The notes under the pieces were generated by a model, which saw only the letters and a list, made by a program, of their open reading frames with translations, searched no databases and had not been told where the DNA came from. From IMG/VR virus record IMGVR_UViG_3300035670_000134: DNA of 20,000 bases; one strand, given 5' to 3'. Made by a program: the position numbers and the translations under genes. Shown piece by piece: positions 1,714 to 19,021 of this stretch. Positions within the stretch are counted from its first letter, which is position 1, and each line of letters starts with the position of its first letter. The stretch is from an uncultured virus (IMG/VR IMGVR_UViG_3300035670_000134) (lineage: Duplodnaviria; Heunggongvirae; Uroviricota; Caudoviricetes).

Positions 1714-1895
1714 AGATATATGTTATCACTCTAAGCAATAAAACGATAATGACGTTACGCGTAACACTGTCTAACGCTGTGTGCTTCGCGTATTATAGTG
1801 TGAGAAGGTATCACAGATTTTGGCGGTCCGTCTCGTTTTACGGAATTTTTTCCAAAAAGCCGGAATCTGGATGATTCAGTGATAGCATCATACCC

Positions 1896-2591
1896 ATGAA
1901 CTACGGAAACAGTGTCAAGGTTTTAAACGAAGGTGCAGTATCTCTGATTGAAGTTATGGGTAGCGACTTAGATGTTGTCAATGCTGCCAGAGTTAGTTTT
2001 TCTGCATACCAAGACGAGATGAATGATAAAGCAGCGGGTCTTGTTAATTATCTTCTTAAGAATAACCATGCAACACCGTTTGAGCATGTTTTGTTTAAGT
2101 TTTACATTAAGTGCCCAATCTTTGTTGCAAGAGAATGGTTTAGGCATAGGTGGTCTTCATTCAATGAGATGAGCATGAGATACTATGTTCCAGATTCATT
2201 AGACTTCTTTTTTCCAAGTGATGAGTCTATTCGTAAGCAAGTTGGTAAGCCGGGTCATTATACGTTTGAGAAGATTGATGATCCAGCAGTTTACGATTTT
2301 GTGACAGAAAAGTTTCAAGAAGCTTACACCGTTGCTGAAAATAACTATTATGAAATGATTGAGGCTGGTATTGCAAAAGAGATTGCAAGATCAGTCCTAC
2401 CAGTTGGTCAGTACACAGAATTTGTCTGGACGGTAAATCTACGTAGTGTAATTAACTTTCTTGCGTTAAGAAATGATGAAAACGCACAGAAAGAAATTAG
2501 ACAGTATGCAGAAGTAATTGAAAACCTTATTTATGCTCATGTGCCTGTAACAATGGAATCGTTTATTAATAACGGCAGGTCAGCGATCTAA
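1896..2591 (+). CDS. thyX: Flavin-dependent thymidylate synthase
   Basis: Motifs VVNAARVS, HATPFEH, PIFVAREWFRHRWSSFNEMSMRY (ThyX RHRxxSxxxxSxRY), EIARSVLP, NLRS and AQKEIRQYA. Confidence 0.97.
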   Translation: MNYGNSVKVLNEGAVSLIEVMGSDLDVVNAARVSFSAYQDEMNDKAAGLVNYLLKNNHATPFEHVLFKFYIKCPIFVAREWFRHRWSSFNEMSMRYYVPDSLDFFFPSDESIRKQVGKPGHYTFEKIDDPAVYDFVTEKFQEAYTVAENNYYEMIEAGIAKEIARSVLPVGQYTEFVWTVNLRSVINFLALRNDENAQKEIRQYAEVIENLIYAHVPVTMESFINNGRSAI

Positions 2592-2905
2592 TGAGAATTG
2601 TTCCTTACGATGGAGATGAAGAGATAGAGGATATTCCTACCTTATCTATCTTGATTAAAGCAATACCTTTTGAAGACGGCTATGCTCCAGCTTTTACGCT
2701 AGTTGCTCCAACTGACGATCACTTTATTTCCATTGATGAAGCAAATTGTTTAATGGATGGGATTGAAATAGCCCGTGATAGAGTCGATGAACTTATTGCT
2801 TTAATGCTACAATCTAAGATTGCGGAACGTTTTGCTGAGCAGCAAATTATCTTGTATGACCAAGATGAGGAGGACGAAGAAGATGATAATGGGGAAGGTG
2901 ATTAA
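2591..2905 (+). CDS. Hypothetical acidic protein
   Basis: Start overlaps the thyX stop (TAATG). The C-terminal tail is acidic. Confidence 0.75.
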   Translation: MRIVPYDGDEEIEDIPTLSILIKAIPFEDGYAPAFTLVAPTDDHFISIDEANCLMDGIEIARDRVDELIALMLQSKIAERFAEQQIILYDQDEEDEEDDNGEGD

Positions 2906-3170
2906 GGATTTTCCTTATCCAGAAAAAAGATGTCCTTACTGCAACACCAAACTAACTCTAGTTAATGCAATTCATTACGAAAATGATCCATATCATTTTA
3001 AAGCTTTATATTTAGATCCAAATCCTAACTGTCCGGTTTACGACGAAGGTGCATTAAAAGGATATGCTCGCATATACTATTCCTCAGAAGAGGCATACTG
3101 GTATTACGGAGATGTAAAGATTCCGGTTCAAAGATGGAATCGTGAAGACTTGTATACGATTTACAAGTAA
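2889..3170 (+). CDS. Hypothetical protein with CPYC motif
   Basis: Likely start ATG 2889 (or 2883) overlapping the previous gene. Protein reads MGKVIKDFPYPEKRCPYC...NCPVY. Confidence 0.7.
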   Translation: MGKVIKDFPYPEKRCPYCNTKLTLVNAIHYENDPYHFKALYLDPNPNCPVYDEGALKGYARIYYSSEEAYWYYGDVKIPVQRWNREDLYTIYK

Positions 3171-4919: not shown

Positions 4920-5267
4920 ATGGAAACCCCTTTTTACCCCATCGTTGAAGTTTTCTGGAAAGATCACTACGCCATCGGTGACGAGTGGTATGATGAGGTC
5001 GGGAAAAGGGATGTCAGGATTATTTCCGCTATCGGATATCTTGTTGATGAAGACGAAGACTATTACTACATTGCTGCCAACTACGATTTTGGAAATCATA
5101 CTTTTTCCTCTGGGACTGCTGTTTTAAAAAATTGCATAATAAGAAGAAGGGTACTCAGTAAAGGTAAATTTAACTATGATCAGTTTTCAGGAACAAGAGC
5201 GTCTGATGAAAATCGTAAACGCACAGCACTCTTTAAAAAATTCGGAAAAGACCCGGGCTGGAGCTAG
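4920..5267 (+). CDS. Hypothetical protein
   Basis: GAGG before ATG 4920. IVEVFWKDH...AIGYLVDEDEDYYYIA is a pattern common in small phage proteins. Confidence 0.7.
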   Translation: METPFYPIVEVFWKDHYAIGDEWYDEVGKRDVRIISAIGYLVDEDEDYYYIAANYDFGNHTFSSGTAVLKNCIIRRRVLSKGKFNYDQFSGTRASDENRKRTALFKKFGKDPGWS

Positions 5268-5613
5268 TGTTATTGTCGGCTTTAAGGATGAAAAGTCTTT
5301 AAAGCAAATTATTGCTCACTATCAAATAAATGAAGATGACGCAAAGTATTGGTGGGAGTATTTTGGCTTCTCTGGTAGTTCTGTTGAGAAGAAAACAAAG
5401 ACCCGGAAAAAGAATCATATCTTTGAGTTTCTTAAAGAGAATGCCGGTTCAGAGATTACTGTAAAAGATCTTTGTGATAAGTGTTCTATTAGCCAGCCAA
5501 CAGCATACAAGTTTGTTAACGATAATATTGGATGGTTCAAAAAAGTTAAACGAGGTTTATACCTTATTGTCGATGCTGATGAAGAAAGAAAGAAGGCAAA
5601 GAGCAATGGGTGA
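5176..5613 (+). CDS. Putative winged-HTH DNA-binding protein
   Basis: C-terminal IFEFLKEN..EITVKDLCDKCSISQPTAYKFV...FKKVKRGLY has a wHTH pattern. Confidence 0.65.
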   Translation: MISFQEQERLMKIVNAQHSLKNSEKTRAGASVIVGFKDEKSLKQIIAHYQINEDDAKYWWEYFGFSGSSVEKKTKTRKKNHIFEFLKENAGSEITVKDLCDKCSISQPTAYKFVNDNIGWFKKVKRGLYLIVDADEERKKAKSNG

Positions 5614-7003: not shown

Positions 7004-7540
7004 ATGAATCTTCAATATCTTGACTTCAAATACGGCATCCGGCCTCATGAGGCCAAATGGCTTATGTCATGCGACCATCTTGCCAAAACGTTTTCAACAT
7101 GTGCGAAACGCCAATATTTTGCCGTTATCATCGGTGACAACAAACGTTTGTTATCACAAGGATACAACGGGTCACCGCCCGGCATGGGGCATTGTAACGA
7201 AGGATATTGTCCGAGATACAAAAACGGTTCCCCGTCGGGCAGCATATATGACGACTGCATCGCCACACACGCCGAAGCAAACGCCATCATGTGGGCCGAC
7301 CCGCACGCCCGCAAAGACGCCACGCTTATTATAAATGGCTCTCCCTGCTATGGATGTGCCAAATTGATAGTTAACAGCGGCATACGGCGAATTATAGGGC
7401 AATCAGACGAAACCTACGCACAAGAGCAGCACGTATACAGCTTCCTACTTCAGAACAGAATTGACACAATTCTGCTGAAGAAAAATGAAAACCGGAAAAT
7501 CCGTCAGATTATCGATCAACACATATCGTCTATCTTGTGA
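7004..7540 (+). CDS. Deoxycytidylate (dCMP) deaminase
   Basis: STCAKRQ, GYNGSPPG..HC, HAEANAI and PCYGCAKLIVNSGI zinc-deaminase motifs. Confidence 0.93.
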   Translation: MNLQYLDFKYGIRPHEAKWLMSCDHLAKTFSTCAKRQYFAVIIGDNKRLLSQGYNGSPPGMGHCNEGYCPRYKNGSPSGSIYDDCIATHAEANAIMWADPHARKDATLIINGSPCYGCAKLIVNSGIRRIIGQSDETYAQEQHVYSFLLQNRIDTILLKKNENRKIRQIIDQHISSIL

Positions 7541-7625
7541 CTCAACCTATAGCTCCCTATTCTGTAGAGCCTAACAAAACTTAAAACCAGCTCTAACCCC
7601 CCAGATTTTTCCCAAAGTCTTCCCC

Positions 7626-7650
7626 AGCCCGGCTAACCCCCGGGCTTTTT
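7626..7650 (+). terminator. Intrinsic terminator closing the AT-rich + strand operon
   Basis: AGCCCGG/CCGGGCT stem followed by a T-run. Confidence 0.7.
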
Positions 7651-7808
7651 CCATTCCCTCAAACTTCCAGCAAAACTATCCTAAGGAAACGCCGACCCAA
7701 AACAGCAAAAAAATTTAATATATATTGGAAGAGGGTAATGCGAAGGCTCCGACCCTTGTATTTACTTGTCTTACCCTGGGTCAATCACCAACAGGGTGAG
7801 ATAGGGGG

Positions 7809-7837
7809 TTGACGTTGGGCGATGGGGTCATTACGGT
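7809..7837 (+). promoter_or_regulatory. Housekeeping-sigma promoter at the start of the GC-rich block
   Basis: TTGACG-N17-TACGGT. Confidence 0.65.
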
Positions 7838-8004
7838 TCCACTCATCGAAGCCGCCCCGGGGCACCGGGCCATAGCGGCGGAGGCCGGTCGGGGCGACCG
7901 AGCACCTAGGTGCGATGCCCCCCCGATCGGGCCGGGATCTAGGTAGCCCGGTACCCTACTGGGGGCGCATGGCGATGCGCCCACGACCCCAAAGGGGGTG
8001 TCCA

Positions 8005-8403
8005 ATGGACGCACTGCTCACGCAGGGTATGTCCAAGCCGACCCGGGATGAGTACACTGCGGCCGCTACTGCGGTCACAGAGTACGCCGGGAGCGGCGCC
8101 GCATCGAACCGGTTCGCCCGGGACGCTGGCAACGTTGCGATGTTTCTCATCGCACTCACGCTGGCCGACCGGATGGATCTCGCCCCGGCCGGACTGGCCG
8201 ACCGGCGAGACTGGGTCCGGTCGGGCGGTTCGGCAGTCACGGCCCGCGACGGTGACTGGGACCGACTGGTCCCGGGCGGTTCACGACCGGACCAACGGTG
8301 CCAGCGTCGGCTTATGTCGGCACTGGCACTGCGGACCGGCCGGGCGATCCGCCTCGACTGGGTCAACGTCGATGGGACATTCTGGCTGGTCCGGACACGG
8401 TGA
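8005..8403 (+). CDS. Hypothetical protein, paralog family A copy 1
   Basis: AAAGGGGG RBS before ATG 8005. Shares SGAASNR, SRPDQxxQRRLMSALAL and RLDW...TFxxVRT with 9440-9808. Confidence 0.85.
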   Translation: MDALLTQGMSKPTRDEYTAAATAVTEYAGSGAASNRFARDAGNVAMFLIALTLADRMDLAPAGLADRRDWVRSGGSAVTARDGDWDRLVPGGSRPDQRCQRRLMSALALRTGRAIRLDWVNVDGTFWLVRTR

Positions 8404-8409
8404 CCGACG

Positions 8410-8434
8410 GTCGGGGGGGTGCGATCCCCCCGAC
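8410..8434 (+). terminator. GC-rich hairpin after family A copy 1
   Basis: GTCGGGGGG...CCCCCCGAC inverted repeat without a U-tract. Confidence 0.5.
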
Positions 8435-8506
8435 CCGGGTCACCCCGGGAGTATCGAATACCGACCGGGCGCACGGAATGCGCCCATGACCCGAAAGGGG
8501 GACGCA

Positions 8507-8794
8507 ATGTCCACACTACAGCGTATCGGGGCCGGTTTCGGCCTCGCCTGCGGCATCATCATCGCCGCTATCGGGATGGATCTCGCATGGGATACCATCG
8601 CATCGGGCGAGTTGGTCGGGGCGTTTATCGTCCTCGCATTCGTCGCCCTGCCCGGGATGGGCACGGTCGTCGGACTCACGGTCGCCATGTACCGGGAGGA
8701 CATGGCCCGGGAGAGCCGGGAGTGCTTGGGCGGTTGGCACTGCTGGTGCCCCGCCTGTACCAACTACCGCACCGGGGTGGATCTCCCCGAATGA
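8507..8794 (+). CDS. Small two-TM membrane protein with Cys/His-rich tail
   Basis: RBS GAAAGGGGG. Two hydrophobic segments followed by CLGGWHCWCPAC. Confidence 0.75.
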   Translation: MSTLQRIGAGFGLACGIIIAAIGMDLAWDTIASGELVGAFIVLAFVALPGMGTVVGLTVAMYREDMARESRECLGGWHCWCPACTNYRTGVDLPE

Positions 8795-8799
8795 CCGGA

Positions 8800-8847
8800 A
8801 CGGCCCCGGGGCTACGGCCCCGGGGCTACGGCCCCGGGGCTACGGCC
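8800..8847. repeat. Tandem 14-bp repeat ACGGCCCCGGGGCT, about 3.4 copies
   Basis: Directly visible. Each unit contains the palindrome GCCCCGGGGC. Confidence 0.95.
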
Positions 8848-8885
8848 ATGTACCGGCCAAGGTCGGGCCGGTCGAGTAGGCCAGG

Positions 8886-9158
8886 GTATCCACAACATAT
8901 CCACAGGCTGTGGACAACGGCATATCCACATGTTTGTCCACACCTGTGGAAAACCCGAGTTATCCACAAATCCACAGGGGTTGTCCACAGGCTTATCCAC
9001 AATCCACAGATTATGGGTGATATCCACAGGGTTTTCCACAACGTTACCCCCAGAATTGTCCACAACCTGTGGAAAACACTGTGTACAACCTGTGGAAAAC
9101 CCCAGGAAATCTGTGGAAAACTTTTTGTCCACAGGGTTATCCACAGCCCTGTGGAAAA
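8886..9158. promoter_or_regulatory. Dense array of about 21 DnaA-box-like 9-mers in both orientations
   Basis: TTATCCACA at 8960, 8993, 9137. TTGTCCACA at 8934, 8981, 9056, 9125 and reverse at 8909. TTTTCCACA at 9032 and reverse at 8945, 9068, 9091, 9112, 9150. Variants at 8886, 8897, 8922, 8968, 9000, 9020, 9080. Confidence 0.9.
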
Positions 9159-9439
9159 CTTTGCCGGGTGTTGGGCGACGCTCTTTCGAAATTGCGCCCA
9201 CACCCGCAACTATGTTAAGAAACACCGTTAGAAATTGAGCAAATGTAATGTTATCGAACGTTGTTATGGTACAGGTGTTGTGAAACCAATACCATTATGC
9301 AACAGCATTATGAAACCATGTTTGGATTATGGGTAGGTTTTCTGGTTGCATTTGCAATCGAGCAGAGTTTGGAATTGGCCAATCTGACTAGATAGGCTGA
9401 CCTTGTTGGTGAACAAGCGAGCCAACAGAAAGGGGAGCC

Positions 9440-9808
9440 ATGAAGGCTCACAAGGTCAGCAAGGAAGAGCAGGAGCAGGCTCTGGCTCTCTGCACAGAGT
9501 GGAAGGAGAGCGGTGCCGCTTCGAATCGGTACAAGGTGGACAAGGCGAACGTCTTGCTCACCGCTCTCGCTCTGAGCGCGACCCGGATGAAGGTCGCTCC
9601 GGCTCCGCTCGCAGAGCGTCGGGAGGCGGTGAAGAGCGGAGCGGTGGAAGCGTTCACCGCAGAGTGGGACGCTCTGGTGGAAGGTGAGAGCCGACCCGAC
9701 CAGAAGGTGCAGCGTCGGCTCATGTCGGCTCTGGCTCTCACCGGAGCGAAGGTGCGGCTCGATTGGTGCCGCATCGGGGATACCTTCTACATCGTCCGCA
9801 CCGGCTGA
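9440..9808 (+). CDS. Hypothetical protein, paralog family A copy 2
   Basis: RBS AAGGGGAG and a possible TTGGAA-N18-TAGGCT promoter upstream. Clearly homologous to 8005-8403. Confidence 0.88.
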   Translation: MKAHKVSKEEQEQALALCTEWKESGAASNRYKVDKANVLLTALALSATRMKVAPAPLAERREAVKSGAVEAFTAEWDALVEGESRPDQKVQRRLMSALALTGAKVRLDWCRIGDTFYIVRTG

Positions 9809-9830
9809 GCCGGAGCGGTACCCTCCCACA

Positions 9831-9863
9831 AGGGAGCCGGTGCTACGGCATCGGCTCCCTTTG
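9831..9863 (+). terminator. Intrinsic terminator
   Basis: AGGGAGCCGGTGC/GCATCGGCTCCCT stem followed by TT. Confidence 0.75.
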
Positions 9864-10110
9864 TCATGTACCGGTGCCAGTCGAGCCAGGATCATCCACC
9901 AACGTTTTTAACGTTAAGAAATAAGATAAGCTACGCCCACGTTTTTAACGTTAAATTATTTACGATGTTTATTATGGGGCTTTAACGTTAACTTCAGTCA
10001 GATACACTTTATGGGATTTTAATTTAACGTTACAAGAAATAGGTTGCAATTGCTTTCGAGATTTGGTTTACTACTACTGTCCCAATGTTTCCTACCAAGG
10101 AGTGTTCGAT

Positions 10111-10491
10111 ATGTCCGATTCAATCATCCCGAATGCCATCGGAATCCAAGATTGGATTACCGATTTCCCCGTCCAGATCCTTACCGTTAACAACGGCGAG
10201 GTGCACTTCAAGGTGGAAATCTTCGGCCGGATCTGCGAAGGCCGTCTCCCCGTCGATTTCTTCAAGTTCATCCCCCCCTACAACGACGGGGGGATTCTTT
10301 GTGGAGAGTGGATTTCTCCACAAGGTTGGGCATGTGCGCCTGCAGTTTGGGCGGATGATCCGTATTCGGGGAAGCCGAGTCGGGCAGATGGACCCTGTGA
10401 TTCGTGCACCAATACTGCTGATGTAATCTGCTCAACCATCAACGAAGAGAAGAGTCTGTGCCAAGACTGTTTCGAAACCTTGTTCTTGTAA
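10111..10491 (+). CDS. Hypothetical protein with C-terminal Cys cluster
   Basis: RBS AAGGAG before ATG 10111. Contains CDSC...C...LCQDC and is followed by a terminator. Confidence 0.75.
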   Translation: MSDSIIPNAIGIQDWITDFPVQILTVNNGEVHFKVEIFGRICEGRLPVDFFKFIPPYNDGGILCGEWISPQGWACAPAVWADDPYSGKPSRADGPCDSCTNTADVICSTINEEKSLCQDCFETLFL

Positions 10492-10513
10492 CCACCTACC
10501 GTTAAGAAACGGA

Positions 10514-10542
10514 AAGACCCCGGCCATCTGGCCGGGGTTTTT
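10514..10542 (+). terminator. Intrinsic terminator
   Basis: GACCCCGGCCA/TGGCCGGGGTT stem plus T-run. Confidence 0.85.
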
Positions 10543-10734
10543 CTTACGTTAAAAACATACTAACGTTAAAAAACACGTAACGTTAAAAAATGGCGGGTGC
10601 TTCGGTGCGAATACCAGCGCCTTGCACCCGTGAGTTTTTAACGTTAACCATACTGAAATTGATTATGGGATCTTAACGTTACCCTTCAGCAAATACACTT
10701 TATGAATTACCAATTTAACGATAGAAGAAAAGTA

Positions 10735-10764
10735 TTGCGTATTGGACTCGACCATGCATAAAAT
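10735..10764 (+). promoter_or_regulatory. Cassette promoter
   Basis: TTGCGT-N18-TAAAAT preceded by an A-rich tract. Confidence 0.6.
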
Positions 10765-10816
10765 GGGCGAAGCCCGGTGGGAATGGCCCACCGGCAGGAC
10801 GGAGGGAGAACCCAAC

Positions 10817-11179
10817 GTGAAGAACGGAACAGAGTACGTCAAGGTCACGAATCTGGAGAACGGTGACAGACTGGCACCGGATTTCATCGAGAAGAATGAA
10901 AAGGTCTGGACGTCCATCATCGTGACCCACAATCTGACGTTGGACGCCGACCATGTCATCGGGAACACGTTCGTTATGAATCAATTCCGCAGGCCGGAAG
11001 TGATCGTGATCGGCACCCTGCCTGCCGGTGTGGTACAGGAATCGGAGTACGGCGATGCAGGCATCGAATTGCACGTTGAGTGCCGGTGGGATTCTCTGGA
11101 GGACGGCTACCAGTGCGCGGCCCGGGGCATCGCCGCTATCCTCGACCCGGACTGCACGTTCGAGCGTTACAAGAAGTAA
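10817..11179 (+). CDS. Hypothetical protein
   Basis: GGAGGGAG RBS before GTG 10817. Bounded by a promoter and a terminator. Confidence 0.75.
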   Translation: MKNGTEYVKVTNLENGDRLAPDFIEKNEKVWTSIIVTHNLTLDADHVIGNTFVMNQFRRPEVIVIGTLPAGVVQESEYGDAGIELHVECRWDSLEDGYQCAARGIAAILDPDCTFERYKK

Positions 11180-11200
11180 TCTACCGTTAAGAACGTCAGA

Positions 11201-11232
11201 GAGGCTCCGGTCGAAAGGCCGGAGCTTTCTTT
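11201..11232 (+). terminator. Intrinsic terminator
   Basis: GGCTCCGGTC-GAAA-GGCCGGAGCT followed by TTCTTT. Confidence 0.85.
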
Positions 11233-11420
11233 GCGTTAAAAATATTCTAACGTTAAGAACATCCTAACGTTAAGAAGGCGGGTGCTTCCGTCAGAATACC
11301 ATGACATTGCACCCGCGAGTTTTTAACGTTAACTATCCTCAAGTTTATTATGTGATCTTAACGTTAATTGTCGTCGTTACCTTTATGGGGAAAATCAATC
11401 CTAACGGTAGATTGATAGAG

Positions 11421-11450
11421 TTGCTTTTTGCTTACCAATGGAACTAGGCT
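11421..11450 (+). promoter_or_regulatory. Cassette promoter
   Basis: TTGCTT-N18-TAGGCT. Confidence 0.55.
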
Positions 11451-11487
11451 AGGGATTCCAAGCAATCCCGACCCGAAAGGAACCGCA

Positions 11488-11757
11488 ATGACGAACCGCG
11501 AAATTTCCGAACTGGCTAACAACATCGTGGACAGACTCCACGAACTGGCCGAGGCAATCGATTCGGTCTACTACGAGGAGTGCGCCGATTCGGCCTGCAC
11601 CAACGCCGAGCCTCTGAACGACACGTTCCGGGTTCTCCGTCATCTTGTTGCTACCGCCGGGCTTGTTAACGCTAGCGGTCTGTGCGACCTGTACAACAAG
11701 CCCGAATGGGTCACGGCGCATGCCTTCATGACCCTTGACTACGAGTGGAACATCTGA
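11488..11757 (+). CDS. Hypothetical protein
   Basis: GAAAGGA RBS before ATG 11488. Protein begins MTNREISELANNIVDRL. Confidence 0.75.
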   Translation: MTNREISELANNIVDRLHELAEAIDSVYYEECADSACTNAEPLNDTFRVLRHLVATAGLVNASGLCDLYNKPEWVTAHAFMTLDYEWNI

Positions 11758-11776
11758 CCGTTAAAAAGGAGAAGCC

Positions 11777-11878
11777 ATGAACCACCCGTTGGGATGGGAG
11801 TTCACCGTTAACTTCTGGATCGTGGTGCTCTGTACATGGGGCATCATCGGTCTGGTACTCAGAGGGAAGGGGGACTGA
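11777..11878 (+). CDS. 33-aa single-TM peptide, not in the ORF track
   Basis: AAGGAG RBS. Translation MNHPLGWEFTVNFWIVVLCTWGIIGLVLRGKGD ends just before a terminator. Confidence 0.6.
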   Translation: MNHPLGWEFTVNFWIVVLCTWGIIGLVLRGKGD

Positions 11879-11886
11879 ACGTTAAG

Positions 11887-11915
11887 AACCCGGGGAGGTG
11901 GACCCCGGGTTTTTT
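11887..11915 (+). terminator. Intrinsic terminator
   Basis: AACCCGGGG/CCCCGGGTT stem plus T-run. Confidence 0.85.
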
Positions 11916-12089
11916 AACGCTTGAAATATTCTTAACGTTAAAAGCTGGCGGGCGTAACGTTAAACGACGCTTAACGTTACGCCCGCAGATTTTTAACGAT
12001 AAGAAAGCACAAGTTTATTATGAGATTCTAACGTTACTATTCACTTAATACACTTTATGGATTACCAATTTAACATTACAAAAAAAGTG

Positions 12090-12117
12090 TTGACTATGTA
12101 TGCCGTTCTGCTAGGAT
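12090..12117 (+). promoter_or_regulatory. Promoter for a probably leaderless transcript
   Basis: TTGACT-N16-TAGGAT with extended TGn. ATG lies 6 nt downstream with no RBS. Confidence 0.7.
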
Positions 12118-12123
12118 TCCGGT

Positions 12124-12327
12124 ATGAAGAAATGGGAGAAGGAAATAGCCGAACTAGCAGCCGAGTTCGGCAGGGCTATCGTTAAGACAAACGGTGGTCA
12201 CTACAAACTAGTTCGCCCTGGCTCTCAACCGGTGTTCGTTTCTTCCACACCATCAGACTTCAGAACGTTAAAGAATACTCGTCGGGATCTACGGCGACAT
12301 GACAACCGGGAAGGAGGTGAACGTTAA
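12124..12327 (+). CDS. HicA-like (dsRBD-fold) toxin/mRNA interferase-like protein
   Basis: 67 aa basic protein with G..IVKTNGGHYKL..PG...VFVSSTPSD.R...N.R.DLRR, the pattern of phage HicA-like proteins with the conserved His in GH. Confidence 0.7.
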   Translation: MKKWEKEIAELAAEFGRAIVKTNGGHYKLVRPGSQPVFVSSTPSDFRTLKNTRRDLRRHDNREGGER

Positions 12328-12328
12328 A

Positions 12329-12484
12329 ATGAAGAAGATGTATTACGTCTGGAATGGCTACTACGTCGAACATCAGGGCACGAAGGAGTCCTGCGAGGAG
12401 TTCATCCGTAACGCTAAGTACATGTTCGGCACGACCGGCCTGTCCATCGTCATCCAGAAGAACGGACGTTACGTCCCCGCCTGA
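12329..12484 (+). CDS. Hypothetical small protein (51 aa)
   Basis: AAGGAGG upstream. Protein begins MKKMYYVWNGYYVEH and is followed by a terminator. Confidence 0.7.
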   Translation: MKKMYYVWNGYYVEHQGTKESCEEFIRNAKYMFGTTGLSIVIQKNGRYVPA

Positions 12485-12492
12485 ACGTTAAG

Positions 12493-12526
12493 AATCCGGC
12501 TCTTACCCCCCGAGAGCCGGATTTTT
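12493..12526 (+). terminator. Intrinsic terminator
   Basis: AATCCGGCTCT/AGAGCCGGATT stem plus TTT. Confidence 0.85.
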
Positions 12527-12858
12527 AACGCTTAGACAAAAGTTAACGTTAAAATGCGGGTGTAACGTTAAGCACACCATTAACGTTACACCCGGGGTTT
12601 TTAACGTTAAGATTCGTCTGGCTTGAGTTTATGTTTTTAACGTTAGCCCGCCCTTTATGGAGCTTAACGTTAGGCAATCGACATGAGCTTTATTAACGAT
12701 AGCCGGAAGTTAACGTTACGGGGCAAACTCGACCCAGATCACCGTAATGAGATCGTAATAATCCTGTAACGTGTCTGTCACCACAAACGCAGTCGGATTA
12801 GGTATCGTTCTAGGTGTTGGGAACAAGCCCAACACAGAGCACCGAAAGGGTGACCGAC

Positions 12859-13158
12859 ATGGCAGCGAACAAGAACAACGACTGGGCATTCGAAGAGATC
12901 GACGAGAGCGAGATCACGGCCGTGCGCCGGGGGCGCAAGAGCAACGTCGATCCGGCGTTTGTGGAGGCTCTCAAGGGGATGACCCCCGGCCGGGCGATCC
13001 GCATCCCGGCGCAGGCTCTCGATCCCAAGGCACCGACCTACAAGACCGACAAGGCCCGGGTCTCGGCCTCGCTCCGCACGGCGATGCGTGCGGCCGGTCA
13101 CACGTCGTTCACGATCGTGTTCTCCCCGGAGGGTGTCCCGCAGATCCGTCTCAAGTGA
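12859..13158 (+). CDS. Small basic putative DNA-binding protein, paralog family B copy 1
   Basis: GAAAGGG RBS, 99 aa, RRGRKS motif. 72/99 identical to 14147-14446 by manual ungapped alignment. Confidence 0.88.
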   Translation: MAANKNNDWAFEEIDESEITAVRRGRKSNVDPAFVEALKGMTPGRAIRIPAQALDPKAPTYKTDKARVSASLRTAMRAAGHTSFTIVFSPEGVPQIRLK

Positions 13159-13178
13159 CCCCCCATCCCCCCCCGGAC

Positions 13179-13208
13179 AGCCCCCGGCCAACAGGCCGGG
13201 GGTTTGTT
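13179..13208 (+). terminator. Intrinsic terminator
   Basis: GCCCCCGGCC/GGCCGGGGGT stem plus TTGTT. Confidence 0.8.
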
Positions 13209-13446
13209 CGTGGTCGAGTACTCCTAACGTTAAGAACCTCCTAACGTTAATTTTTTTTGACGATAGAATCTTAACGTTAAAGACTCATTCCTTAACGTTA
13301 AGAACGGCGGGCGTAACCGTAACAACAAGTAGTGTTACGCCCGTGGATTTTTAACGTTAAATGTTGCTATCTTTATTATGTGTTTTTAACGTTAAACCTT
13401 AGCCATAAACTTTACACCTCGACCAATTAACATTAGAAAAAAAGGC

Positions 13447-13474
13447 TTGTGATCCTGGCCTAATCTGATAACCT
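13447..13474 (+). promoter_or_regulatory. Promoter for a probably leaderless transcript
   Basis: TTGTGA-N16-TAACCT with TGn. ATG lies 6 nt downstream, the same geometry as 12090-12124 (both end GGT-ATG). Confidence 0.6.
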
Positions 13475-13480
13475 ACTGGT

Positions 13481-13795
13481 ATGCGAATGAGTGAACGTAC
13501 CCCATGTCAGAACTGCGGTCTCCGGATGGCCGTCCCCGCTGTGCTCTGCACCCGCTGTGCGGCGTCCAGAGAGATTCGGGAACAGTTTAACGTTTGGACT
13601 CCGGCCGACCTTGACCTGACCGACCTGACCCATACCGAGCGCATGCTCGCATTCATCTATTGCGTGACCGGTGACATTTCCGACTACTTCGATCACTTTG
13701 TCGTTAAGAACGACGAGGTCGAGGAAGAGGACACTCTTAACGTTTCGATCAGGTACTGTGATAATCGGATTAACTTCGGTAAATACAGGGCATAG
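13481..13795 (+). CDS. Hypothetical zinc-ribbon protein
   Basis: CQNC-x10-CTRC. Bounded by a promoter and a terminator hairpin at 13808-13835. Confidence 0.75.
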   Translation: MRMSERTPCQNCGLRMAVPAVLCTRCAASREIREQFNVWTPADLDLTDLTHTERMLAFIYCVTGDISDYFDHFVVKNDEVEEEDTLNVSIRYCDNRINFGKYRA

Positions 13796-14146
13796 TCCTA
13801 CCGTTAAAAACCCCGGCATCCAGTCGGGGCTTTTTAACGCTTAAAAATATGTTAACGTTAAAATCGGAGGGTGTAACGTTAAAAGCCCTTAACGTTACAC
13901 CCGAGCGGTTTTTAACGTTAAGATTATGAAGTTGAGTATGAATTCTTAACGTTAACCCGGCCTTTATGGGACTTAACGTTAACCAATCTCTTTATGAGCT
14001 CTTAACGATACATACTCGACCGCACTCGACCGCCTCCTGGTTGCATTTGCAACTATCGGATAGGGTGGAAATGTTGGGATGGGCGATAGCGTTTCCAATG
14101 TCACCTAAGGGACTGAAACGGAAGTAGGTCCAGAACGGAGAATGAC

Positions 14147-14446
14147 ATGGCAGGAAAGACGACTCACGGATGGGACTTCGAGGAGATCCCTGAGGACGAG
14201 ATTCAGGCGGTCAGGCGTGGACGGAAGTCCAACGTGGACCCGGCTCTGGTGGACGGACTGCGGACCCTCACGCCGGGTCGCGCCATCCGCATCCCCTCGC
14301 AGAAGTTGGACCCGACCGCGGCCAACTACCGGACGGAGAAGGCGCGCGTGTCCGCATCCCTGCGGGTCGCCATGCGCGCGGCGGGGCACACCTCCTTCGC
14401 CATCATCTTCTCGCCCGACGGCGTTCCGCAGATTCGCCTGAAGTGA
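14147..14446 (+). CDS. Small basic putative DNA-binding protein, paralog family B copy 2
   Basis: GGAG RBS, 99 aa, homologous to 12859-13158. Confidence 0.88.
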   Translation: MAGKTTHGWDFEEIPEDEIQAVRRGRKSNVDPALVDGLRTLTPGRAIRIPSQKLDPTAANYRTEKARVSASLRVAMRAAGHTSFAIIFSPDGVPQIRLK

Positions 14447-14453
14447 CCGGTGT

Positions 14454-14483
14454 GCCGGTGAGGGTCGAGTGACCCTCACCGGC
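14454..14483 (+). terminator. 13-bp perfect hairpin after family B copy 2
   Basis: GCCGGTGAGGGTC-GAGT-GACCCTCACCGGC. Confidence 0.7.
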
Positions 14484-15594
14484 CAGGGTCTACCGTTAAA
14501 TTTTTTTTCGGTCGAGTTTCTTAACGTTAAAAGCCAGGGGAGAAGAAGTTAACGTTAAGAAACAACCCGAGTCAGAACTTAACGTTAAGAACCGGCGGGC
14601 GTGACCGATTGATCGGTGAAATGACACGCCCGTTTATTTTTAACGTTAAGAATTCAAAAAGTTTAATGTATTTCCTAATCCGTTTTCTCATCATTTATCC
14701 AATCTATTAATTCTAATTACCTTTATGGGTAACGTTATGCTAATACTGGTTCGTTTTTAACGTTAAGAATGGGTTCAGGTGGAGTATGCGGTCTTAACGT
14801 TAAGTTCCTATGACTGATCTATTCCCTTACTCAATCCCTTATCTCTTGTTACCTTTATGCTCGACCTATATAGGGAGCAGTATAGGTAGCAGTATAGGTA
14901 CCTAAACCCTGGCGGATTAGATGTCTATATCTCTAGGGAATAAGAACACTTAATAGACCCCCAAAATCCCCCGCAACTTTCGTTGTATATATCATCGTTG
15001 TAATTTGGACTAATAGGGTCATTAAATCGATCACCGTCCAAATCGACACATTTCCCCCCACATTTGCCGGTTGTACGATAGTTATATCTATCAGTTCTTT
15101 TTTTATTTAACGTAGATCCCTTTATGGGCGTACCTACACTACGTTAGGTTACTGAAGACATAGATAAACCCTTACCCAACCCGGCCGGGTTAAAGTGTTC
15201 TTCTTCCTATATAGGGGTATACACACAACCAATAAGCCTATCTATTAATTTACCTAGGGATAGATAAAAAAAGGCGGGTTAAGTGTTTCTATTCTCCTAT
15301 ATAGGGGAGAACACAACACCTAACCCGCCTAATTTCTTAAAACTGTTAAAAATCCCTAGGAAAATAACAAAAAGCGTACCTTTCTGAGCAAAAACACCAG
15401 CAAATTCAACACATCCTGAGCTTTATTGTGCACATAAACCGAGAACGCTGGACACGTTTAGGGTATTTGCTGTATCAATCTATGAAGGAATTAATAGAGG
15501 TGTATCGATATCTGGGGAGTGTAGATACATCTATCTATGTATGTTCCTATATACATAATACCTACCCTAACCCCGCCGGGGTTCGTACCTCTAT

Positions 15595-18788: not shown

Positions 18789-18948
18789 TGTAACCTCCGG
18801 TTGTTTGTGTTGATATATAGAAAAAGAATAGGCAGAAATCCTTGTCCGATAACCAGCGGATTTGACACACTTTCTCCGTCCCTAAAGAGAAGAGGGTGCA
18901 GGATTTCCTTAACGATCTGAAAGGGAGAATCGCTTAGCCTATTCTTTG

Positions 18949-19021
18949 TGCCTCTGGCAGGAGTCGAACCTGCGATCATCAGATTAGAAGTCTGTTGCTT
19001 TATCCTCTAAGCTACAGAGGC
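18949..19021 (-). tRNA. tRNA-Arg(TCT)
   Basis: Minus strand GCCTCTGTAGCTTAGAGGATAAAGCAACAGACTTCTAATCTGATGATCGCAGGTTCGACTCCTGCCAGAGGCA. Acceptor stem GCCTCTG/CAGAGGC, GGTTCGACTCC T-arm, anticodon loop CT-TCT-AA. CCA is not encoded. Confidence 0.93.

Follow-up and report, generated by a model that had tools for sequence, protein, structure and literature searches.

A palindromic dyad that changes between lineages punctuates the terminator- and promoter-like modules of a shuffled phage cassette array

We analysed a stretch of 20,000 nucleotides (nt; hereafter the window) from the uncultured Caudoviricetes virus IMGVR_UViG_3300035670_000134, in which small orphan genes on the + strand are separated by eight homologous spacers of about 250-450 bp whose invariant columns (alignment A1) are mainly copies of the palindrome TAACGTTA. 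The palindrome occurs exactly 43 times: 42 copies lie within 9909-14802, and the sole exact copy outside lies at 388. This enrichment is real and far beyond chance; dinucleotide-preserving shuffles contained a mean of 0.28 copies per window and a maximum of 3, and none of 200 reached at least 43. One-mismatch variants number 22 in 9900-14810, with four elsewhere (1750, 5517, 9039 and 9246), and some fall inside open reading frames (ORFs), namely GAACGTTA at 12263 and 12319 and TAACGTTT at 13588 and 13738. The original prediction, made from the sequence alone, had announced about 42 copies in roughly 9908-14803, one further copy at 388, roughly 20 one-mismatch variants, and variants inside cargo ORFs near 12264, 12320, 13587 and 13737, all of which the counts bear out. 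The nearest record, the 23.7-kb fragment G001, has an identical pattern of 42 sites plus 1.

A logo built from the 42 window sites and 496 sites of other arrays gives a 10-bp dyad, tTAACGTTAa, with symmetric flanks that are T-rich on the 5′ side and A-rich on the 3′ side, and the central CG is present in 43 of the 49 TAA-NN-TTA sequences of the window. Each spacer holds about 4-7 exact sites, and the clusters are ~680 bp apart. Because the sites sit in homologous spacers, the 42 copies are not independent events, and spacer duplication accounts for part of the count. Distances between sites are broad (9 to >60 bp, with peaks near 20, 26, 35-37 and 58-62 bp) and show no 10-11 bp periodicity; the word-enrichment and spacing analysis that the original prediction had proposed thus gave a strong enrichment in the window and no sign of helical phasing. 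The array lies in an island of high G+C content (GC; 48-67% over 7500-14800), whereas the flanking backbone has 39-42%.

Each spacer is predicted to contain two hairpin terminators followed by tandem promoter-like elements. The module begins at the stop codon of the upstream cargo gene, which often overlaps, or is followed by, ACCGTTAAGAA or GAACGTTAAGAA. Next come a GC-rich, cargo-specific hairpin with a T-run (T1, a predicted intrinsic terminator), one to four copies of TAACGTTAA, and hairpin 2 (T2; GGCGGGYG...CRCCCG), the T-run of which leads straight into the site TTTTTAACGTTAA. An element of the type (C/G)TTTATTATG, comprising a strand-specific, −10-box-like CTTTAT(TATG), lies 11-13 nt past TTTTTAACGTTAA, and another site, TTAACGTTA, follows it by 5-12 nt, often with a second TTTATGG unit and a further site beyond. 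The module closes with an A-rich stretch, a sigma-70-like TTGnnn-N17-TAnnnT pair preceded by a site, and a leader with a strong Shine–Dalgarno (SD) sequence.

All eight modules lie on the + strand. S0 (9809-10110; 4 exact sites), which the alignment places as the first terminator/promoter module, follows the second copy of cargo family A. In S1 (10492-10816), delimited by the alignment and by hairpin and promoter scans, the 5′ half reads stop codon, ACCGTTAAGAA variant, T1 hairpin, two sites, hairpin 2 with T-run and a site, and the 3′ half reads N17, a TATTATG-like element, a site, TTTATG, a site variant and TTGCGT-N17-TAAAAT. By alignment, S2 (11180-11487) is built as S1, and S3 (11879-12123) carries two sites in its hairpin 2 stem (11948-11986). 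S4 (12485-12858; 7 exact sites) lies upstream of the first copy of family B and has a long 5′ leader; S5 (13159-13480; 6 exact sites) is followed by S6 (13796-14146; 6 exact sites), which lies upstream of the second copy of family B and is paralogous to S4. The terminal spacer S7 (14447-14900; 7 exact sites) ends the array. It is kept in loci L123, L128, L143, L147, L187 and L190 from other contigs (blastn, 72-76% identity over 213-260 bp), and its match to L135 (67% over 644 bp) extends into the ORF of the second family B copy.

The hairpin 2 that adjoins TTTTTAACGTTAA at 10590-10647 (+ strand) has a consensus stem of 10 bp and a T-run, and further copies on the same strand lie at 11275-11332, 11945-12002, 12553-12610, 13304-13360 and 14592-14649. 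Across 25 sequences from the window and other arrays, 5 of the 10 stem pairs have compensatory changes, from which we conclude that it is the structure of hairpin 2 that is conserved and not its sequence. In three of the six window elements the stem consists of two TAACGTTA copies (11948-11986, 12557-12594 and 13874-13897). The hairpin scan placed T1 hairpins with T-runs at 11201-11228 and 13811-13829 on the + strand; it lists the GC-rich T1 hairpin at 10517-10538 on the − strand, and the T-run follows on the + strand. A search of Rfam gave no family match, its single sub-threshold match (C0465, E 0.099) lying under the gathering score. On the promoter side, CTTTAT occurs in the arrays 224 times on the coding strand versus 23 times on the other. 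The commonest unit is site-N9-CTTTAT(TATG)-N11/12-site, with a gap from site to CTTTAT of 8-15 nt (mode 9), and a simple promoter scan flagged TTAACG-N17-TATTAT in three spacers.

What the original prediction overlooked is the main context: a cassette array, conserved and shuffled, that recurs throughout an entire phage lineage. An anchor pattern, TTTTTAACGTTAA-N24-29-TAACGTTA, which is found in seven of the eight window spacers, identified 99 stretches in metagenome contigs, and 37 of the 76 loci examined for them carry at least 6, and up to 42, copies of TAACGTTA. We kept 28 loci after removing five overlapping cuts of two contigs (L136-138 and L174-175) and four arrays set aside from the array statistics as unrelated (L132, L144, L150 and L157; sequence inspected for L144 only, which proved to be a CGATAA tandem array). 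L177 (same contig as L176) and L166 (near-identical to L135) were excluded as duplicates. At 65-80% nucleotide identity, the kept contigs have family A, family B, further cargo and the backbone to the right of the array in common with the window. To compare cargo, arrays were cut at the sites and the best ORF of each interval was clustered; the picks are automatic, and some are truncated or doubtful. The 29 resulting families (F0 and so on) occur in differing orders and combinations: F27-F28-F2-F3-F0-F11-F0 in the window, F2-F3-F1-F0 in L154, F11-F3-F1-F2 in L121, F12-F2-F13-F1-F0-F0 in L135, F1-F4-F6-F9-F5-F0-F0 in L130 and F8-F14-F15-F16-F17-F1-F7-F0-... in L176.

Within these modules the sites are far more constrained than the surrounding spacer, as judged from blastn alignments of the other arrays to the window. 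Column identity was 96.2% for all TAACGTTA (2909/3023), 94.4% for those TAACGTTA outside the search-pattern requirement (1789/1896) and 96.3% for CTTTAT (283/294), versus 83-90% for hairpin arms, 85.5% for one-mismatch variants, 69.6% for other spacer (6935/9964) and 70.7% for cargo coding sequence. The cargo ORFs of the window contain no exact site and eight one-mismatch variants versus 0.69 expected, with at least eight in none of 1,000 codon shuffles. The 62 cargo ORFs of other arrays contain 51 near-sites versus 5.7 expected; in these, exact sites are absent by definition, because the intervals were cut at sites. Selection on the site itself, beyond the effect of spacer duplication, had been proposed, and both the 94.4% versus 69.6% contrast and the excess of ORF-internal variants support it.

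Searches elsewhere returned little. A megablast search with the whole window found no match among 50,697 phage records. Pairs of sites 5-35 bp apart occurred at 117 IMG/VR loci, none with more than six sites, which we judged to be chance or unrelated tandem repeats; the two anchor-pattern matches in IMG/VR and the 12 single matches in species-representative genomes were likewise put down to chance. One further candidate, L197, on a contig of a metagenome-assembled genome labelled Metamycoplasmataceae, has 25 copies of TAACGTTA in 1.3 kb (1796-3073) in units of 125-250 bp. We rejected it as a related array because it is an iteron-like tandem array without cargo; it indicates that the same 8-mer serves as a repeated site elsewhere.

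Relatives could also be found without reference to the motif, and these proved the most informative. Single-sequence IMG/VR searches with family A and family B gave no relatives, and only a profile of family B (alignment A5) worked, leading to 14 IMG/VR loci (L208-L221) on contigs of 20-109 kb. None of the 14 contains TAACGTTA. All nevertheless have 21-72 TAA-NN-TTA sites within a stretch of 6 kb (4.1 kb for the truncated L212) versus 0-7 outside it, a strongly strand-biased CTTTATG (for example, 15 vs 3 and 9 vs 0) and two to seven hairpin-2-like elements each. The dyad in all 14 is GTAA-NN-TTAC, whereas it is TTAA-CG-TTAA (TTAACGTTAA) in the window and the three tabulated arrays of its own lineage (lineage 1). 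Among the GTAA-NN-TTAC loci, GTAATATTAC predominates in one group, and TGTAAGTTTACA is used in both orientations by a second. The frame of the half-sites (TAA, 2 bp, TTA) is thus kept together with the remainder of the module, and the dyad flanks and centre change by lineage.

In four relatives rated 91-100% complete by CheckV, the phage's own dyad is almost confined to the array. For GTAATATTAC, 8 of 10 sites lie in the array of G002 (108.7 kb, with direct terminal repeat (DTR) ends; array span 5.9 kb) and 8 of 9 in that of G003 (106.6 kb; 3.4 kb). For GTAAGTTTAC, the fractions are 6 of 6 in G006 (109.2 kb; 2.8 kb) and 10 of 10 in G005 (95 kb; 3.7 kb). A reversed-pattern control gave 0 sites in all four. 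The two GTAATATTAC outside the array in G002 lie at 97412 and 97440. Arrays of the GTAA-NN-TTAC lineages are not GC-rich (0.38-0.46).

These genomes also indicate what kind of phage carries the array. The window backbone encodes a ribonucleotide reductase fragment, a GT4 glycosyltransferase, ThyX and dCMP deaminase, and the best tblastn matches of the glycosyltransferase and ThyX are to Streptomyces phages (33-45% identity). Around the window's genes, the gene order of G002 is the same: ribonucleotide reductase, glycosyltransferase, phrog_32850, a protein with a possible winged helix–turn–helix (wHTH), phrog_1485 and then the array. PHROGs annotation of G002, which CheckV rates complete, covered 140 of its 168 ORFs, the remainder being 5 border-crossing ORFs, one of 3676 aa among them, and 23 others. 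It revealed a portal, a major head protein, terminase, a PolIII-alpha-like polymerase, DnaB, a UvsX-like recombinase, a RuvC-like protein, several glycosyltransferases and a WhiB-like ORF (L225:17497-17796). WhiB-type regulators are typical of Actinobacteria and their phages. The phage belongs to an uncultivated lineage with genomes of about 95-110 kb; given the WhiB-like ORF, the Streptomyces-phage matches and DnaA-box-like sequences of the TTGTCCACA flavour, which we take to be the actinobacterial-type consensus, this lineage probably infects Actinobacteria. The 3676-aa ORF of G002 (loci L222-L227) spans 56322-67352.

A perfect dyad invites the question of which protein might bind it, and the original prediction had named families A and B and the protein encoded at 5176-5613. 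The last of these is the best lead for the binder. It is a 145-aa backbone protein (+ strand) and the sole hint among the 50 window ORFs, having sub-threshold helix–turn–helix (HTH) matches, and a homologue with 36-39% identity is present in each of the four 91-100% complete relatives. In structural comparison its C-terminal 70 residues resemble IclR/MarR/DeoR-type winged helices (Atlas; score ~0.8, template-modelling score 0.64-0.73 by the short partner). The putative recognition helix reads ISLPTFYNFYNAN in all four GTAA-NN-TTAC relatives and ISQPTAYKFVNDN in the window. A profile of the protein searched against Protein Data Bank sequences gave a single match, at E 0.22. Family B forms 86 clusters, all unnamed and metagenomic, in a 5.8-billion-protein collection, and its model (predicted local distance difference test (pLDDT) 80.7) is a small alpha/beta domain; its R3H-like rows at Z ~4 are not meaningful, and its Atlas look-alikes are unnamed phage proteins. 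Family A forms 23 clusters, and the matches of its model to RepE and Pi (Z 2.7) are too weak to be meaningful. The models of families A and B showed no DNA-binding fold, and of the proposed binders the protein at 5176-5613 is still a lead.

Our preferred explanation, which we hold with moderate confidence, is that the TAACGTTA sites are operators of a phage-encoded dimeric regulator, set in terminator/promoter modules that double as recombination points. The full form, tTAACGTTAa, would be the protein-binding dyad (the proposed target duplex of the candidate dimer is TTTTTAACGTTAAAAA), built into the module that separates the single-gene cassettes of a hypervariable array. One factor would occupy all the cassette promoters together and repress them, for example to shut off the array at one stage of infection. 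The placement of sites on both sides of the −10-like element suggests such joint occupancy and repression by one factor, and the extra sites near terminators could give cooperative binding or act as roadblocks. A dyad that changes while the architecture stays constant is the pattern expected from a phage-encoded binder co-evolving with its site, and would be hard to square with an unchanging host factor, with a target of restriction or with a core promoter element of the host polymerase. Being the only sequence common to the cassettes, the modules are probably also crossover points for cassette gain, loss and reordering. Site count, module layout, conservation, cassette shuffling, the switch of motif between lineages and the confinement to the array are direct results, whereas protein binding, the phage origin of the binder, repression, promoter activity and the host are what we infer. 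The landing pad for a dimeric protein that had originally been proposed therefore stands in part: the dyad, its constraint and its lineage specificity fit it indirectly, and its coating and decoy variants are without support.

Several observations weigh against operators of this kind. No binding protein was identified, Pfam and PHROGs giving no DNA-binding family above threshold among the 50 window ORFs, and the structural models of both cargo families gave no convincing fold match (family B: Foldseek best E 0.26, best Z 5.3, to a pseudouridine synthase fragment; family A: model pLDDT 94.5, Foldseek best E 0.053, best Z 4.3). The correlation of the putative recognition helix with the dyad is inseparable from phylogeny, since there are only two groups and they also differ in phylogenetic distance. 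The conservation figures and the lineage-1 relatives are biased towards conservation, because alignments were seeded on conserved words and the retrieval pattern requires two exact sites. The consensus scan found 10 promoter-like sites versus 6.8 ± 2.3 in shuffles, and promoter identity is something we infer only; the spacing between site and −10-like element shifts by several bp, and CTTTAT is found 8-15 bp downstream of only ~17% of sites (~90/541). A plain operator function is harder to see for the many sites close to terminators or stop codons: of 69 cargo ORFs, 21 have a site or near-site that overlaps the stop codon or starts within ~1 nt of its end (TAA|CGTTAAGAA and TGA|ACGTTAAGAA, for example). 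Near-sites are, in addition, enriched ~10-fold inside ORFs. Both the stop-codon sites and the ORF-internal near-sites fit a role in recombination at least as well as one in regulation.

The site could instead be a positive promoter element, bound by a phage activator or read by a sigma-like factor as a −35-type sequence paired with CTTTAT as the −10, so that the array is switched on. Its position upstream of the strand-specific CTTTAT is roughly fixed (gap 8-15 nt, mode 9), it lies ~10-12 bp upstream of the −35 in the sigma-70-like TTGnnn-N17-TAnnnT pairs, a common position for an activator, and CTTTAT is conserved as strongly as the site. Yet sites also occur downstream of CTTTAT, within terminator stems and at stop codons, positions that make no sense for an activator or a −35 element; the gap from site to CTTTAT differs by several bp, and a perfect dyad is unusual for a sigma-recognized element. 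Moreover, no sigma-factor or RNA polymerase family was found at E <= 1e-5 in the annotated G002 ORFs (the 3676-aa ORF lies outside that scan). We consider this alternative unlikely.

Also improbable in our view is that the palindrome is mainly a recombination site, similar to an integron attC core, at which a site-specific enzyme cuts and joins TAAC|GTTA, and that its regulatory appearance is secondary. Cassette order and content vary between arrays; in the pairwise alignments inspected, homology between arrays that share one cassette stops at or near hairpin 2 and TTTTTAACGTTAA where the neighbouring cassette differs, and four contigs end their match to the window at 12612-12619. Sites or near-sites adjoin the stop codon in 21 of 69 cargo ORFs, as noted, and near-sites lie between fused ORFs (12319). 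Contigs from an independent study have cassette-skipping joints beside sites (11334 to 12010 and 12005 to 13369), but these joints have sides of 23-29 nt within repeated spacers, which is a flagged unreliable class. Four to seven sites per spacer are well over the need of a crossover site. No integrase or site-specific recombinase family was detected by PHROGs (E <= 1e-5) in the annotated G002 ORFs, nor any integrase or recombinase family in the 50 window ORFs, and the cassettes have promoter-like and terminator elements of their own, unlike integron cassettes. Breakpoints at the most conserved 60 bp are equally expected from plain homologous recombination. A comparison of hairpin-side and promoter-side similarity against upstream and downstream cargo had only 12 informative pairs. 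It is plausible that the modules are crossover points, exchange being either site-specific or simply homologous. A more speculative variant, to which we assign a low probability, is that the palindrome has two jobs, as operator for joint cassette switching by one phage regulator and as the crossover point, with a stop codon built into TTAACGTTAA, for inserting and exchanging new ORFs. Were this so, uncultivated actinophages of ~100 kb would possess an integron-like, ‘plug-and-play’ locus that lacks an integrase, and its operator code would diversify from lineage to lineage as an immunity specificity does.

Two further explanations are very unlikely. One places the function at the RNA level, where the self-complementary UUAACGUUAA in leaders and 3′ untranslated regions would pair and alternative stems would control termination, processing or translation. 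Any two copies can pair, three of the six hairpin 2 stems in the window are indeed made of two copies, and many sites lie in predicted transcribed regions; however, sites upstream of promoter-like elements would fall outside the same transcript, pairing needs complementarity and not the fixed sequence seen in lineage 1 (CG in 43/49), and no Rfam family matches. Because many spacers maintain the hairpin 2 structure with unrelated stem sequences, the hairpin does not depend on the palindrome, which counts against a function at the RNA level. The other, suggested in the original prediction, has the sites serve as decoys or sinks that capture a host factor or defence nuclease, or as a platform for coating, protection or segregation of the region. 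It can draw on their very high local density and on the DnaA-box-like cluster beside the array in the window and its relatives (a cluster that could itself titrate a host protein), but several findings count against it: the backbone shows neither avoidance nor enrichment of AACGTT (5 observed vs 3.5 expected), the motif differs between related lineages as CTTTATG and the hairpin stay constant, the sites bracket the strand-specific CTTTAT(TATG) and adjoin terminator hairpins in a precise, regulatory geometry unlike that of a plain tandem array, and neither the window ORFs nor the annotated G002 ORFs yielded a ParB, Rep or partition family.

Among known systems, the integrons resemble the array in outline. 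They have IntI beside the array, attC sites with R''-L''/L'-R' imperfect palindromes, and mostly promoterless cassettes. The likeness lies in one-directional single-gene cassettes of variable content, a structured imperfect palindrome at boundaries, AAC and GTT junction triplets, and stop codons that often fall in the boundary element. In contrast to integrons, no IntI-type integrase was found in the 50 window ORFs or the annotated ORFs of G002, the boundaries are modules of 250-450 bp with terminators and promoter-like units rather than attC, and each cassette has promoter-like elements. The stoperators of Cluster A mycobacteriophages (L5 gp71-type) are asymmetric sites of 13-14 bp, bound by a monomer, oriented with transcription and spread genome-wide. 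With these the array shares dozens of copies of one short site in short actinophage intergenic regions; as in stoperators, where specificity diverges together with the repressor, there are many constrained intergenic copies that diverge between related phages. It differs in that its sites are perfect dyads, several per spacer and confined to one 5-kb array, and in that the window shows no sign of lysogeny. MetJ/Arc-type ribbon–helix–helix (RHH) repressors bind tandem 8-bp palindromic boxes, such as the met box AGACGTCT. Here, too, an 8-bp palindrome with central ACGT is repeated in each control region, and each copy could hold a cooperative small dimer, but no RHH protein was detected and the boxes are not abutting, lying 9 to >60 bp apart without phasing. 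Iterons and centromeres differ as well, because the dyads are dispersed through promoter/terminator modules and are accompanied by no Rep or ParB family.

An identical 8-mer is found in one characterized operator. In the passages of the GraA study that deal with its operator, an HTH dimer of this HigA-type XRE antitoxin of Pseudomonas putida reads a central TAACGTTA, mutation of which cuts affinity 100- to 10,000-fold (PMC6393540). An HTH dimer can therefore read TAACGTTA. The same passages describe one operator at one toxin–antitoxin promoter in a proteobacterium, with two dimers sharing the palindrome (PMC6393540), unlike the array. No XRE/HigA-type (HTH_3) protein was detected in the window ORFs, and the 67-aa phrog_2089 ORF has no adjacent HTH partner, so that the 8-mer identity with the GraA operator may be coincidental. 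Among the matches listed in a literature search for TTAACGTTAA, TAACGTTA and TAACGTTAA, only GraA was biologically relevant, the rest being primers and similar. Full-text literature, with subscription journals outside its coverage, yielded no earlier description of such arrays.

Functionally, the closest system is the promoter-early stem-loops (PeSLs) of T4-type phages. As presented in the relevant sections of two papers, these are small terminator/promoter modules upstream of ORFans in hyperplastic regions, and they supply shared sequence where cassettes are exchanged between related phages, giving modular shuffling (PMC2839356; PMC4122927). Judged against those sections, the array has in common with PeSLs intergenic composite modules, an ORFan context, an upstream stop codon in the AT-rich module part and cassette exchange points. 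Hairpin 2 and T1, as predicted from sequence, correspond to the stem-loop terminator or attenuator; the 29 reordered cargo families and the breaks of homology near the module correspond to hypervariable exchange points upstream of ORFans; and as to a sigma-70 early promoter, the CTTTAT strand bias (224 vs 23) suggests a directional promoter-like element, but the scan total of 10 does not exceed the shuffled 6.8 ± 2.3. By analogy, the array works like PeSLs while lying outside that set: these are not T4-type myoviruses, G002 showing no T4 core set and having a PolIII-alpha-like polymerase, a WhiB-like ORF and DTR ends. The best-conserved element here is a perfect palindrome of 8-10 bp at four to seven copies per module, not a sigma-70 consensus, and it changes between lineages; at about 250-450 bp the modules exceed PeSLs in length, each holding two terminators and two or three promoter-like units, and they form one contiguous array. 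What sets the system apart from PeSLs is the strictly conserved multi-copy dyad, the longer two-terminator modules, the contiguous array and the unrelated phage group.

The array offers a compact natural case of a large, lytic-type phage organizing and rewiring an accessory ORFan block. Each of its genes has, by prediction, two terminators as insulation, promoter-like units of its own and a tie to one short dyad. If the dyad is an operator, one protein would govern about ten unrelated genes, and the change from TTAACGTTAA to GTAANNTTAC would be a tractable instance of protein–DNA co-evolution outside the classical immunity systems. The modules also mark the entry points of new genes and extend the PeSL question to a different, uncultivated phage group. 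In practical terms, a module (terminator, operator, promoter and SD) with its cognate regulator could supply insulated expression parts for Actinobacteria.

The cargo itself is largely without family assignment: the 11 ORFs scanned in 8005-14446 gave no Pfam match and one PHROGs match. All cargo ORFs with an assigned strand are on +. F27 (10111-10491; 126 aa, Cys-rich) and F28 (10817-11179; 120 aa) belong to no family in Pfam or PHROGs. F2 (11488-11757; 89 aa) is common to L121, L126, L135, L149 and L163 and is followed by a 33-aa hydrophobic ORF (11777-11878). The 67-aa ORF at 12124-12327, which may be HicA-like, matches phrog_2089 (function unassigned in PHROGs; E 1.9e-13); it overlaps the start region of the next ORF, and the near-site GAACGTTA lies between the SD and the ATG of that ORF. 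This next ORF, F3 (12329-12484; 51 aa), is common to L121, L126, L154 and L171, and its stop codon overlaps the variant TGAACGTTAAGAA. The two copies of family B (12859-13158 and 14147-14446; 99 aa each) flank F11 (13481-13795; 104 aa), which has an N-terminal CxxC...CxxC and is shared with L121. Family B (F0) is the commonest cargo, filling 25 of 103 cargo intervals, usually in the last one or two cassettes. Directly upstream of the array lies the second copy of family A (9440-9808, + strand; 122 aa), with a paralogue at 8005-8403.

Cargo ORFs have 50-67% GC, reaching 0.85 at third codon positions, and ribosome-binding sites of GGAGG or GAAAGG type precede 10 of the 12 listed, whereas the backbone has ~40% GC and most of its ORFs lack an SD sequence. 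An initiation stretch, GACCCGAAAGG(N6-9)ATG, precedes unrelated cargo ORFs at 7983-8005, 8489-8507, 11470-11488 and 12846-12859, and also F2 of L135; it resembles a portable ribosome-binding cassette. A fusion in L135 joins two ORFs that form separate cassettes in other arrays, with the conserved GACCCGAAAGG as the sole sequence between them.

To the left of the array, 8880-9160 holds a cluster of 14 DnaA-box-like nine-mers, T[TG][AGT]TCCACA, on both strands (8909-9158): TTGTCCACA five times, TTTTCCACA six times and TTATCCACA three times within 250 bp. In L130, L153, L159, L176 and L184 the first hairpin 2 module is immediately preceded by a comparable cluster (cctgtggataac...), and blastn matches to the cluster of the window were obtained in L130, L167, L169 and L184. 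The cluster is a conserved head of the array and may serve as an origin, as a sink for DnaA or in regulation. At 8800-8847 the 14-bp ACGGCCCCGGGGCT is repeated in three perfect tandem copies, just past an ORF ending at 8794. To the right, genes on the opposite strand converge on the array. Between these and the array, 15190-15330 contains two similar GC-clamped inverted repeats with a cctatatagggg core, and 15268-15364 of this convergence zone has ~80% identity in L159 and L167. A tRNA-Arg (TCT) gene lies farther right, at 18948-19021 on the − strand, among small backbone ORFs.

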